A DNA stretch of 64,000 nt, taken from contig CAVSGI010000027.1 in the NCBI GenBank assembly GCA_963727445.1, positions 96,001 through 160,000 of the forward strand, read 5' to 3'. Made by a program: the position numbers and the translations under genes. Below the pieces are notes generated by a model, which was not told where the DNA came from, did not search any database, and saw only the letters and a list, made by a program, of their open reading frames with translations. This document shows, piece by piece, positions 6,313 through 45,511 of this stretch. The first letter of the stretch is position 1. Every line of letters begins with the position of its first letter. The DNA comes from an uncultured delta proteobacterium. GTDB lineage: Bacteria; Myxococcota_A; Polyangia; Polyangiales; B10-G4.

Positions 6313-7540
6313 GTGAACTGGGGGACGGCCTATACGAAGTGGCTTCGTCGTCGCGGCGTGGCCATCGCGGACATCGGCATTCACGTGCGAGTGGCCTCGC
6401 GCATCATGGCCGAGGTCGGCAACGACACGGTGGCGCCGAAGCACGTGGACGATGCCCGGGCGGAGGCGATCCGGCGCGGCTCGACCCCCGAGCAGCTCGA
6501 CTCCTTCGACGCGCTGGCCGGCGTGTTCATGGAGTTCAACGCCGATCCCCACGCGTACGAGGAGCCCGAGCCGGCGCCCGAAATCGACCTCGGCCCGATG
6601 GAGGAGGCCACGGATCAGATCGACCTCGGTCCGATGGAGTCGGGGTCGGCGGCCGCGACGGGAACCGAGACGCAGACAGAGACAGAGTCGGCTTCGGAAA
6701 CGGAGACGGACACGGAGTCGGAGACGGACGCGGCCCCGGAGACGGCTTCCGAGGCGGAGATGAACACGGCCGCGGAGACGGCTTCGGAGACGGAGACGGC
6801 CGCGGAGACGGCGGCGGCCGACGCGTCGCCCTCTCCCCACGCGGCGCGATCCTGTCGCTACTGCGGCGGCCCGGTCGCCATCGACTACAGCCAAGAGCGC
6901 CTCCTCATCGCGCTCGGCGTAGGGACGCTCCTCAGCGTGGCTCTCGGCTTCTTCCTCGGCACGCTCGGCACGGTCGCGCTGATCCTCCTCTGCGCCGCCG
7001 GCGCGGCCGGCGCGGGCGCGGCGCTGGTCGCCCATCGTTGCGAATCGTGCCGACGCGTGGTGGACACGAGGCGGCTCAAGACCGCGGAGGTCGCCCTGGT
7101 CGCGGCCACACGGAGGCGCTTCCGCGGTCTTGCGGCCGGCGCCGCGGTGGCGGGTGCGGCGATGGGCGTCGCGGGGGTGGTCGTCGCGGCGAACGCGGTG
7201 GACCCGCGGGACGCGCTCTTGTCGAACGCGGTCGAGACGGTCGCACACCGCATCGCATCGGATCAAACGCTTCGCGAGGAGAGCCTTCGCTACGACCCGG
7301 AGCTCGTGAACGAGTCCGTGATCATGACCTTCTTCAGCGACGATTACGCGGCGCACGCACCGCGCCCGCCCGACGGCATCGGGATTCTGCCGCTTCCCCC
7401 CCGAACGACCGTTCTGCGTCGTGGTGCGGGCGGGACAGGATGCCCACCGCATCCTTGTCGAAGGCTACGGCGCCAATCGCGAGACCATCGTCGCCCACCA
7501 GCAGCTGGAGGTCCTGCCCCCCGAGCGGCCAGCCGACTGA
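6313..7540 (+). CDS. Hypothetical membrane protein with acidic Glu/Thr linker and CxxC...HxCxxC zinc finger; +1 frameshift in C7 run at 7396-7402
   Basis: Removing one C gives ...LPPERPFCVVVRAGQDAHRILVEGYGANRETIVAHQQLEVLPPERPAD* ending at TGA 7538-7540. The 1177-aa ORF in the track is an artefactual fusion with the downstream peptidase. Confidence 0.6.
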
Positions 7541-7612
7541 GCGCACGAAACGCGTGCGTGTTCCGCACGAATCGCCTCGTGGCCGCCGCGCCTCGCGACC
7601 ATCGTGAGGGCC

Positions 7613-8122
7613 ATGACACGCATCACGGCCCTGGCAGCGCTTCCGCTGCTCCTCGCCTGCGCGGGCGACGCCGAAACGGCGCCGACCGAGCTCGTCTTCG
7701 AAGCCGCCGCCCCGTCCGGAGCAAGCGCCGTCTACCTCGACGGCACGCTCGACGAGGCGGGGCTGACCCTCCAGCTGTGGGTGCGGGACGCCGGCGACGT
7801 CTTCGGCGTCGCCGCCCACCTGATCCACGAGACCCCCGCCCGAGAGGTCGTCGCCGACCGGCCCCTCGGCTCCGACGACGAGGCCCTGCACCTGGTCGTC
7901 GACGCCCCGGGCGACCTCTCGGTTGGGGGCACTCGGCTCGCGCCCTCCCTCGGAGACGTGTCGATGGACGGCCCCACCCGGCTGGCCACGCTGACGCTCC
8001 CACCGCCGAGCGGCCCCACCACCTTCGCCGTGGAACGCATCACCATCCGGCGGAGCGACGGCACTTTCGTGCCGACTTCGGGCTACGGCGCCGCGGTGGT
8101 GGAGAGGGCGGTGTCCCGATGA
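7613..8122 (+). CDS. Cohesin-like domain lipoprotein
   Basis: LLLAC lipobox; LQLWVRDAGDVFGVAAHL...GDLSVGGTRL..G.VS.DGP..LATLTL...G.T..RSDG follows the cohesin beta-sandwich pattern. Confidence 0.65.
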   Translation: MTRITALAALPLLLACAGDAETAPTELVFEAAAPSGASAVYLDGTLDEAGLTLQLWVRDAGDVFGVAAHLIHETPAREVVADRPLGSDDEALHLVVDAPGDLSVGGTRLAPSLGDVSMDGPTRLATLTLPPPSGPTTFAVERITIRRSDGTFVPTSGYGAAVVERAVSR

Positions 8123-9846
8123 AGCGCGCCCTGCCCTTGGCCTTGCTCTCGATAGCGGCCGTCCCGGCCACGGCGTCGGCGCAGATGGACGTGGTCGAGC
8201 AGGCGGTGACCGTGGACGTGACCGGAGAGCTCGAGATCGTGATTGACGCGACGGTCGCGCTCACCGCAGCGACGAGCACCCTCTACCTCTCCGCGTTCCT
8301 CACGGACGCCCAACAGATCACGGTGGACGGCGAGCCCGCCACGCTCACGCCCTACCCCGACTTTCCGCAGTACGCCTCCGTCGTCACTCTTCCGGTGGCC
8401 CGGGACGCGGGCGAAACGCTCGCCTTTCACGTCGTCCTGCGCGGCGCTCCACACTGCAATGTAGGCGCGCCCCCCGGCGCCGCGTGGTGCTGGCATTCGG
8501 AGCGCGAGACGATCCTCCCAGGCGGCGGCGCCGGACACGCGTGGTATCTCGAGAATCTCATCGAGAGCGATCCCTTCACCGGCCACATCGAGGTGCTGGC
8601 CCCGACGGGCCACGAGGTCCGCGCCGCACAGAACGCGCCGACCGAAGTGAGCACCGAAGGCGCGGTCACGCGGACGCGCTTCGAGATCTCGCGCCCCACC
8701 ACGCTGGTGCCGCTCTATGCAGGGGACGCCTCCGTCGCGAGCGGCGAGGGCTTCGACTTCGACGTCCTCTACCATCCCGAGCGGGACGACGCGGCGAAGG
8801 TCGCGCGGATGGCGCAGCTCGGCGCCGAGGTCTACCCCCTCTACGGCGAGCTCTTCGGTGTGCTGCCCACCGACCGCGCGCAGGTGGTTCTGGTACCGCG
8901 GACCTTCGGTGCAGGGGGCATGGGGCTCATGGGCAATCCGTTCATCGCCGAGTACGTGGTCGGCGACTACGACTACCTCCTGGTCCAGGGCACGGCGCAC
9001 GAGCTCGCGCACTCGTGGTGGGCGGGGGTCGCGTCGGCACCCGACCCGGTGGAGGCGCCCTTCCTTCAGGAAGGGTTCGCCGAGTACTCCGCGTGGCTGG
9101 CGCTCGGCGACCTCTACGGCGCCCAGACCCGCCTCTCGGGCAACCGAATGAACGCCACCTTCTACATGTATCGCCGCCCCGACGGCGTCGATGTCGCCAT
9201 CCTCGATCCGAGCGGCGCCGATTCCCCGGCGTATCTCCACGCCATGTACCACAAGGGCTCCCAGGTGTTGCGCATGCTCGAGGCGCGCGTGGGGCGCGAC
9301 GCTTTTCTCGACGCCCTGGTCGGGCTCGTCGCGCGCGGACCGAACGAGCTGTCGGTGCGCGCGCTCCACGACGAGCTCTTGCGGGCGAGCGGTGAGGACC
9401 TCGCCCCGATCATGGATCAGTGGCTGCGCGGCACCGGCTATCCGGTCCTGACCGCGAGCGCCACCGACCTCGCGGTGGACGGGGACTGGCTGCTTCGCGT
9501 CACGGTGCGCGACACCTGGGGCGACGGTCGGGTCGTCGAGGAGAGCGTCGACCTCACCACCGGTACCGCCCCCCTCGACCCCCATCCCGAGGCCGTGCTG
9601 CGCGAGATCGATCCGGCGTGGACCTTCGCCCGCGAGGTGCGCCCCGCGACGCCTGGGGACGTGACCTTCGACGGGACGGTGGACGCCGCCGATCTGATCG
9701 CCGTCGCGCTGAGGAGCGGCACCGAGCTCCCCGTGGAGCGGCGGCGCGATGGGGGCTACGACCCGCTCTTCGATCTCGATGGCGACTTCCGCGTGGATCG
9801 GGCGGACGTGATGGCGGCGGCAGCGCGCGCGACCGCCGCACCTTAG
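8119..9846 (+). CDS. Secreted M1-family (gluzincin) metallopeptidase with C-terminal dockerin-like domain
   Basis: Signal peptide MKRALPLALLSIAAVPATASA; HELAH...EGFAEY; YHKG; C-terminal GDVTFDGTVDAADL...DLDGDFRVDRADV; ATGA overlap with upstream gene. Confidence 0.85.
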   Translation: MKRALPLALLSIAAVPATASAQMDVVEQAVTVDVTGELEIVIDATVALTAATSTLYLSAFLTDAQQITVDGEPATLTPYPDFPQYASVVTLPVARDAGETLAFHVVLRGAPHCNVGAPPGAAWCWHSERETILPGGGAGHAWYLENLIESDPFTGHIEVLAPTGHEVRAAQNAPTEVSTEGAVTRTRFEISRPTTLVPLYAGDASVASGEGFDFDVLYHPERDDAAKVARMAQLGAEVYPLYGELFGVLPTDRAQVVLVPRTFGAGGMGLMGNPFIAEYVVGDYDYLLVQGTAHELAHSWWAGVASAPDPVEAPFLQEGFAEYSAWLALGDLYGAQTRLSGNRMNATFYMYRRPDGVDVAILDPSGADSPAYLHAMYHKGSQVLRMLEARVGRDAFLDALVGLVARGPNELSVRALHDELLRASGEDLAPIMDQWLRGTGYPVLTASATDLAVDGDWLLRVTVRDTWGDGRVVEESVDLTTGTAPLDPHPEAVLREIDPAWTFAREVRPATPGDVTFDGTVDAADLIAVALRSGTELPVERRRDGGYDPLFDLDGDFRVDRADVMAAAARATAAP

Positions 9847-9857
9847 GCGGCCGTTAG

Positions 9858-9891
9858 CGGATGCACGCCTCGCCCGCCGGGCGTGCATCCG
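9858..9891. terminator. Perfect 12-bp stem hairpin after peptidase gene (possible terminator or mRNA stabiliser)
   Basis: CGGATGCACGCC / GGCGTGCATCCG inverted repeat; no U-tract. Confidence 0.4.
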
Positions 9892-9955: not shown

Positions 9956-10780
9956 ATGAACGAGCTGGCGCTGTCCACGAGCCCCACGCCGACCCTGGCC
10001 CTCCGCCGCTGGTCCCGCCCCGACGGCCCAGCCCGCGCATACCCAGAGAACGCCCATCCCACCTGGGAGGTCGCTCGGGTGACCCGGGGCCTCGCCCGCT
10101 ACGACGCCGGCCGCGCACATTTCGATGTCGGGCCGGGCGCCACCATCCTGGTCCCCGCCGAGGTCGGCCACGTGACGACCTTCGAAGGCGCCGCCGTCGC
10201 CACCTCGCTTCAGATCTCAGCGGCACGCTTCGAGGGGATCGCCCGGGCCGCGCATCTCGACCCCTCCGGCGACCCGATGGTCTTCGCGCCGAGCGACGCG
10301 CGCGCCGAGCGGCTGGACCGCCTCTTTCAGCTCATCTCCGACGAGGTCGCGCGCGCAGACGCGGGCAGCGCGCTCGCGATCGACGCGCTCGGTGAAGCGT
10401 TGGTCGTCGAGGCCCTGCGGGGAAGCGAGCGCGCGACCGAACGCCTCGATCTCGACCCGCGGATCGCGCGGGCCATCGAGCTGGTGCAGTCGTGCTTCGC
10501 CGATCCGCTCTCCGTCGACGACCTCGCGCGCGCGGCCGCGATGAGCCGCTTCCACTTCAGCCGCTGCTTTCGCGCGCAGGTCGGCCTCAGCCCCTATCAG
10601 TACGTGCAGAAGATCCGTGTCGAGCGCGCGGCGCTCATGCTGAGCCGTGGCCGAACGGTCTCGCAAGCCGCGCTCGACGTCGGCTTCTCGGATCTCAGCC
10701 GCTTCGCGCGCGCCTTCCGGCGTCACCTCGGTTGCACGCCCAACGAATGGGCGAGTCGCGAAGACAGGCGATGCGCCTGA
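9956..10780 (+). CDS. AraC-family transcriptional regulator (cupin + HTH)
   Basis: ENAHPTWEV cupin; LSVDDLARAAAMSRFHFSRCFRAQVGLSPYQY...VGFSDLSRFARAFRRHLGCTP. Confidence 0.9.
   Translation: MNELALSTSPTPTLALRRWSRPDGPARAYPENAHPTWEVARVTRGLARYDAGRAHFDVGPGATILVPAEVGHVTTFEGAAVATSLQISAARFEGIARAAHLDPSGDPMVFAPSDARAERLDRLFQLISDEVARADAGSALAIDALGEALVVEALRGSERATERLDLDPRIARAIELVQSCFADPLSVDDLARAAAMSRFHFSRCFRAQVGLSPYQYVQKIRVERAALMLSRGRTVSQAALDVGFSDLSRFARAFRRHLGCTPNEWASREDRRCA

Positions 10781-42169: not shown

Positions 42170-42173
<4 letters not shown>
41238..42173 (-). CDS. Secreted alpha/beta-fold esterase
   Basis: Signal peptide; [32 protein letters not shown] overlaps carB stop. Confidence 0.75.

Positions 42174-45511
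<3,338 letters not shown>

Follow-up and report, generated by a model that had tools for sequence, protein, structure and literature searches.

Several described systems hold a dockerin-bearing enzyme on the cell envelope by means of a single cohesin. In C. thermocellum, SdbA, OlpA and OlpC (PDB 2bm3, 3ul4, 4dh2) each present one envelope-fixed cohesin that catches a dockerin-tailed enzyme, and R. flavefaciens ScaE captures a dockerin-bearing cysteine peptidase in the same one-cohesin manner; peptidases on cohesins are known in both Ruminococcus and Clostridium (PMC12484212). These proteins are Gram-positive wall anchors, attached through SLH modules or sortase and belonging to large cellulosome systems. 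ClcC-ClcD of Cellulosilyticum lentocellum (Bacillota) is a two-gene operon that encodes the genome's single cohesin and single dockerin and whose products form a heterodimer; the enzyme docked there is a cellulase, and its cohesin partner has a cellulose-binding module in place of a lipid anchor (PMC13487519). In the diderm freshwater Planctomycetes, non-cellulosomal cohesins and dockerins are proposed to display zinc peptidases on the envelope; this ‘Planctosome’ is modelled as a multi-protein assembly comprising an anchor of 2,210 aa, an adaptor protein and M12B/M14 peptidases (PMC6461901). The role of non-cellulosomal cohesin-dockerin modules has nevertheless long been unsettled, chiefly for want of clear cognate pairs and cargo. 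Peer et al. (2009) is reportedly the main survey of such modules, and the survey or its supplements may list myxobacterial ones. Our search of titles and the beginnings of abstracts, confined to literature outside subscription, returned no account of a myxobacterial cohesin-M1 peptidase pair, and two papers mention cohesin or dockerin modules in other taxa (bioRxiv 2023.11.21.568195; PMC10553843).

The locus described here lies in a window of 64,000 nucleotides (the whole stretch of DNA that was analysed) from an uncultured delta proteobacterium (Table 1). Like the Gram-positive anchors, it appears to use one envelope-fixed cohesin to catch one enzyme; in contrast to them, it has a lipid anchor, belongs to a diderm host, lacks a scaffoldin and comes with its own co-encoded cargo and a linked regulator, and its cohesin shares only 7-16% sequence identity with the single-cohesin anchors. 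Whereas the ‘Planctosome’ model has many parts, this pair consists of a 169-aa lipoprotein and one M1-fold enzyme. We consider it probable that the lipid-anchored cohesin captures the peptidase through a dockerin-like tail and holds it on the envelope one-to-one, with both genes switched on by the AraC regulator through an upstream repeat. The cohesin fold, the dockerin-like tail and the conserved pairing of the two genes together make a cohesin-dockerin tether likely. The results thus support part of the original prediction, whereas outer-membrane vesicles, an outward-facing location and a predatory role would be speculative. The original prediction had called the pair ‘cellulosome-style’, which overstates the case: a cellulosome has a multi-cohesin scaffoldin and several dockerin-bearing carbohydrate enzymes, and here the genome holds one such cohesin, one clear dockerin and a peptidase as cargo. 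Judged from sequence and predicted structure, the pair is likely a one-socket, one-enzyme tether and not a cellulosome-like assembly.

Table 1. Positions of the features of the locus in the window.
Feature	Position	Strand	Description
Tandem 11-bp direct repeat	7543..7575	+	22-bp period; 37 bp upstream of cohesin start
Cohesin lipoprotein gene	7613..8122	+	169 aa
Signal peptide II	7613-7657	+	Part of lipoprotein
Lipobox Cys	7658-7660	+	Part of lipoprotein
Cohesin-fold domain	about 7685-8110	+	Part of lipoprotein
M1-fold peptidase gene	8119..9846	+	575 aa; predicted secreted gluzincin
GGMGL motif	8914..8928	+	Aligned to GAMEN of M1 aminopeptidases; Gly replaces the amine-binding Glu
Zinc site	8998..9072	+	HELAH (residues 294-298) and third ligand E318
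Tyr377	9247-9249	+	At the usual catalytic position
Dockerin-like module	9655..9843	+	Two Asp-rich loop-helix repeats; conserved 27-residue spacer
AraC-family regulator gene	9956..10780	+	Cupin ligand-binding domain; conserved neighbour of the window's pair subtype

Genes of the pair and the peptidase active site

Both open reading frames lie where they had been predicted, and they overlap by an ATGA at 8119-8122; the same four-base overlap is seen again at most orthologous loci, and each gene has a high GC3 in its own frame. The host genome (9.47 Mb, 86% complete) has 43 MYXO-CTERM matches versus none in 14 control genomes, and the orthologues of the peptidase come from organisms labelled Myxococcota, Polyangiaceae, Myxococcaceae, Archangiaceae or Deltaproteobacteria, all of which fits a member of Myxococcota. 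A 1177-aa reading frame (6313-9846) that would fuse the upstream gene to the peptidase was rejected on a GC3 frame switch and probably arose artificially, from a frameshift at about 7390-7440 in the upstream gene. That upstream gene (window 6313-7540) encodes a membrane protein that has a CxxC...CxxC pair and an acidic linker rich in Thr, Glu and Ala, and the apparent frameshift in the gene is likely an assembly indel. Elsewhere in the window (42170-45511), carB, for the large subunit of carbamoyl-phosphate synthase, is broken into at least three reading frames, which suggests indel errors in the assembly.

The second gene of the pair had been read as a secreted gluzincin, and this description holds: the protein has a signal-peptide-like N-terminus, matches Pfam Peptidase_M1 (E 1.4e-11) and contains the HELAH/E318 zinc site. 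With PepN, tricorn F3, ERAP, EryP and the two-domain M1dr, it shares the fold of M1 domains I-III, HExxH with its downstream Glu, and the catalytic Tyr. Its model (mean pLDDT 94.6) comprises domains I-III and matches ERAP, IRAP and EryP over these domains with a TM of about 0.72 in Foldseek; that search, made with the whole peptidase model, returned M1 enzymes only. HExxH is present in 33/33 peptidases of the family, the spaced Glu in 30/33 by pattern and YxKG in 29/33.

Despite these similarities, the family differs from the M1 aminopeptidases in its signal peptide and in two parts of the catalytic apparatus. First, the position of the GAMEN Glu is occupied by Gly in 29 of the 33 peptidases and by Ser in the other 4, and never by Glu, so that the GXMEN exopeptidase motif with its amine-binding residue is missing and the protein is classed as an M1-fold gluzincin rather than an aminopeptidase. 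Second, the C-terminal helical domain IV, which is usual but not universal in M1 enzymes, is missing; the model ends in a beta-sandwich and the dockerin-like module, which follows domain III directly, at the place of domain IV. In other M1 enzymes the GAMEN Glu anchors the amino terminus of the substrate and domain IV closes the active site (bioRxiv 2023.05.30.542994); the loss of both means that this peptidase is probably not an ordinary aminopeptidase. On sequence and model, its active-site cleft is likely open and acts on larger or N-blocked peptides instead of trimming free N-termini. A literature search listed no paper on M1 enzymes without GAMEN, and the proteins would define an M1-fold subfamily lacking the aminopeptidase motif.

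The position of the dockerin-like module directly after domain III also raises the idea that the cohesin binds it chiefly as a regulatory or activating subunit in the place of domain IV, gating the active site or presenting substrate, with anchoring a secondary matter. It would fit this idea that other M1 enzymes use domain IV as a gate to the active site, and that the cohesin is nearly always paired with one enzyme family and not with varied cargo. We consider it unlikely, however, as M1dr works with two domains, so a lid is not required (bioRxiv 2023.05.30.542994), and a lipobox, for which a purely regulatory subunit would have no need, is kept in 80 of 92 homologues (by a loose pattern). 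A combined scheme, in which Myxococcota have turned an M1 peptidase into a different enzyme, also strikes us as improbable: with the amine-binding motif lost and the gating domain IV swapped for a dockerin, the cohesin would be both surface tether and detachable lid, and the enzyme would be induced through AraC on demand and active only when docked.

The cohesin-like and dockerin-like modules

The first gene had been described as a lipoprotein that is essentially one cohesin-like sandwich, and the structural evidence bears this out. The protein has the lipobox LLAC with its Cys at 7658, and its AlphaFold model, built with 24 homologues, is all beta with a mean pLDDT of 95.7 and has the elongated nine-stranded sandwich of cohesin topology. 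All 39 matches listed by Foldseek are cohesins or cohesin-containing complexes (best E 1.6e-6), and in VIA-align, against 48,161 chains, ranks 1-18 are cohesins, the best being 6kgc_A (Z 13.3, rmsd 3.2 Å, 129 residues aligned); the best non-cohesin reaches Z 9.5, and adhesin sandwiches match at Z about 8-9.5. Single-cohesin anchors of cellulosome producers are among the structures matched. Type I, type II and non-cellulosomal Archaeoglobus cohesins tie in the structure search, which therefore does not assign the lipoprotein to a cohesin type. On the predicted model, the window lipoprotein is a single cohesin-fold domain, and the fold check that the original prediction had named was passed in AlphaFold, Foldseek and VIA-align alike.

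The Pfam profiles, which had been named as a further check, gave a divided answer: the window's own proteins fall short, with no Cohesin match and a Dockerin_1 match below the cut-off, whereas the lipoprotein family profile and more distant homologues reach Cohesin, and other peptidases of the family match Dockerin_1. In a Pfam scan at E≤1 the window lipoprotein had no Cohesin (PF00963) match, and Pfam and NCBIfam scans of it gave nothing useful; together with 23 close homologues it stays below the Cohesin cut-off (best E 0.024), and a search of PDB sequences with the lipoprotein profile gave only E 0.97 and 1.7. The profile of the lipoprotein family, on the other hand, collects 772 representatives at E≤0.001 and reaches Pfam-cohesin proteins, to E 7e-33. 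When 40 proteins picked from the longer and weaker matches among 150 listed (of the 772) were scanned, 31 fitted Pfam Cohesin at E≤0.01. A distant single-domain homologue (P0168) passes Pfam Cohesin with 39.4 bits against a cut-off of 24.1, and a single-domain, Pfam-passing cohesin aligns with the family profile over its full length (142 columns, HH probability 98.8). Among the next relatives of the family are multi-cohesin proteins of 3-5 modules with type IX secretion tails (P0064, P0098, P0117, P0119, P0120, P0129, P0130, P0136).

The duplicated loop pair of the peptidase begins at 9655, as had been claimed, and the tail consists of two tandem repeats, each an Asp-rich calcium loop followed in the peptidase model by a helix. 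The window tail scores 12.4 bits (E 0.19) against Pfam Dockerin_1 (PF00404; cut-off 22.9). Dockerin_1 is matched at E≤1 by 30/33 peptidases (best 1.3e-6), and a precomputed PF00404 label is attached to two family members. When 36 tails were combined in a profile, its top PDB matches were three type II dockerins, 2y3n_B (E 7.5e-7), 2b59_B and 4wi0_B, and calmodulin EF-hands come soon afterwards (E 4e-4). The window modules score below the Pfam cut-offs, and the cohesin and dockerin assignments rest on profiles and predicted fold. Four Asp residues of the loops are invariant across all 36 tails, at positions 9 and 12 in repeat 1 and at positions 1 and 12 in repeat 2. Dockerins usually carry Asp or Asn at loop position 3; in 20/20 members of the window's subtype, position 3 of loop 1 is Thr or Ser.

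The pattern of conservation also bears on how the modules might meet. Helix 1 of the tail is conserved, with Ala at position 17 in 34/36 and Gly at position 10 in 27/36, whereas helix 3 is variable, its top residue reaching 8-13 of 36 at most equivalent positions; this difference suggests one binding mode. In the cohesin, strands 3, 6 and 8 bear conserved small and basic residues, on the side to which dockerins bind in known cohesins (the side being deduced from alternation). The peptidase would dock on the cohesin through its calcium-folded dockerin, mainly by the conserved first helix.

It could be argued that the two proteins share a pathway without binding through these modules, the tail being a calcium-binding, stabilising appendage and the lipoprotein a receptor for substrate or another partner. 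The weak Pfam scores, the degenerate first loop, the EF-hand-like matches, the occurrence of cohesin-like sandwiches in adhesins and the existence of some M1-dockerins without an adjacent cohesin are all compatible with this explanation. We nonetheless rate it as quite unlikely, given that two rare and complementary modules stay adjacent despite a change in gene order and that conservation falls on both the cohesin strands and the first dockerin helix. We therefore retain capture of the tail by the cohesin as the preferred reading.

Conservation of the pair across the phylum

That the pair should recur in relatives was a further expectation of the original prediction, and searches started from either gene agree with it. 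Using peptidase motifs only, we found 26 orthologous peptidase loci, 13 in genomes and 13 on metagenome contigs (two of the contigs duplicate other rows and two are nearly identical). A cohesin lies directly upstream at 26/26 and a dockerin is visible at 23/26, the other 3 being cut by contig ends; the profiles behind these counts include most of the same loci, and single-sequence tblastn alone found 23/26. In the same two scans, none of 73 other M1 loci carries a cohesin or dockerin module. Conversely, the cohesin profile alone was positive in 50 of 401 genomes of the phylum, and an M1 peptidase adjoins the cohesin at 30/30 loci returned by this cohesin-only search; 18 of these were extended, and the tail was recognised at the end of every one, by profile in 16 cases and by eye in 2.

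With profiles of wider reach, for which some of the training came from the genomes counted, the cohesin was found in 67, the dockerin in 82 and both in 66 of the 401 genomes. A same-strand dockerin lies within 3.5 kb of 64/73 cohesin matches, and these 64 close pairs include 48 with the cohesin first and 16 with the peptidase first. That the pairing survives this change of gene order argues for function, although kin loci are not independent. The cohesin was not found in 334 of the 401 sampled genomes, several well-sampled families among them. Distances between cohesins correlate with those between dockerins (rho 0.59), as do loop lengths (rho 0.72), but shared descent explains such a correlation and we do not count it as evidence. 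In one subtype (L160-L167, L174, L175), the loop after cohesin strand 6 has 21-25 residues versus 13-16 and the dockerin spacer 29-34 residues versus 27; the longer loop and spacer may mark subtype-specific interfaces, with shared descent as an alternative. At L021:4400-4640 (G023:C15), the 5′ end of the cohesin is lost where the sequence changes abruptly to sugar-pathway DNA of lower GC, and there is a frameshift in the peptidase; this contig is probably chimeric.

Most positive genomes (61/67) have a single cohesin, and in the host genome, at its 86% completeness, the pair's type is represented by one cohesin and one clear dockerin. Inspection of 21 further loci revealed at least three genomes (G154, G409, G424) that hold, besides a full pair elsewhere, a second M1-dockerin for which no adjacent cohesin was detected (L214, L215, L216); from sequence, these are candidate clients in trans. 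One more M1-dockerin, in G288, sits at a contig end, and in G310 and G383 an M1-dockerin is present with no cohesin detected in the genome. Eight weak dockerin matches among the same 21 loci sit in unrelated proteins. Weaker dockerin-like repeats also occur in other secreted proteins (L220-L222, L228-L230), three of which combine an N-terminal repeat with an HExxH metalloprotease motif. In the host genome, a lipoprotein (G000:C9:236987-237871, +) combines a linker rich in Ala and Asp and a globular domain with a compact C-terminal, dockerin-like duplicated loop, and its sequence makes it a possible second dockerin protein.

The pair might also be seen as a weapon, used in predation or delivered by vesicles, and as the smallest unit of a larger protease array of the cellulosome kind. 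The myxobacterial host, the few genomes in which additional M1-dockerin paralogues might use the same socket and the second lipoprotein of the host genome would fit this notion, but we regard it as very improbable, since single cohesins are the rule, no multi-cohesin scaffold was found in the host genome, the pair was not found in most of the sampled genomes (334/401) and the locus has no more than three conserved genes.

The pair lends itself to direct tests of binding, localisation and the effect on enzyme activity: it is small and unambiguous, its two members are encoded together in single copy, and the pairing is kept across the phylum sample through a change in gene order. If the proposal is right, lipoprotein-cohesin tethering would be an envelope display route in diderms alongside MYXO-CTERM sorting, and the two modules would be a new orthogonal cohesin-dockerin pair.

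Predicted envelope sorting and the linked regulator

In the proposed mechanism, the cohesin protein would be exported and lipidated, and the peptidase, also predicted to be exported, would join it. Lys is found at +2 in none of the 80 homologues with a lipobox, and by the +2 Lys sorting rule (PMC3222651) the lipoprotein probably reaches the outer membrane. Ala at +7 is reported as an extracellular-matrix signal in M. xanthus (PMC3222651); the window lipoprotein has Thr there. The ATGA overlap, with its translational coupling, suits a one-to-one complex, and a two-gene cohesin-dockerin operon is known to yield a real heterodimer (PMC13487519).

Neither the linked AraC gene nor the upstream repeat nor the altered active-site motif was part of the original prediction. 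The AraC protein has a helix-turn-helix (HTH_18, E 2e-26) and a ligand-binding domain (AraC_binding, E 6e-10), and its gene stands beside the pair in 13/13 genome loci and 8/13 metagenome loci, 3 of the 5 remaining loci being contigs under 2.4 kb. The gene may be upstream or downstream of the pair and on either strand; no other neighbour is common to the loci beyond close kin, so that the conserved part of the locus is limited to three genes.

The DNA that precedes the cohesin contains an 11-bp sequence repeated at a 21-22-bp period. A repeat pair with ≤4 mismatches lies upstream of 12/23 loci and a half-site with ≤1 mismatch at 16/23, versus 0/115 coding control windows; the consensus was derived from the same 23 regions, with duplicates and loci without upstream DNA excluded. 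The repeat at 7543-7575 is unique in the window and was not seen in 100 shuffles. AraC proteins bind tandem repeats of this kind, and we consider the repeat, on its sequence, a likely operator of the linked regulator. In a scan of the 9.47-Mb genome for a wider regulon, no second site with ≤3 mismatches was found, and there are 11 further four-mismatch matches, one of which overlaps the true site. The AraC gene and the repeat are both missing at 17/17 loci of other subtypes, and both are missing again at one locus of the window's subtype (L046). The regulator would induce the cohesin and peptidase genes together through the repeat on sensing a small ligand, for which substrates or products of peptide breakdown are the most plausible candidates. 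The stretch that separates the peptidase stop from the AraC gene holds an 11-bp inverted repeat without mismatches and with a loop of 10 nt (window 9859-9890), a possible terminator or mRNA-stabilising hairpin.
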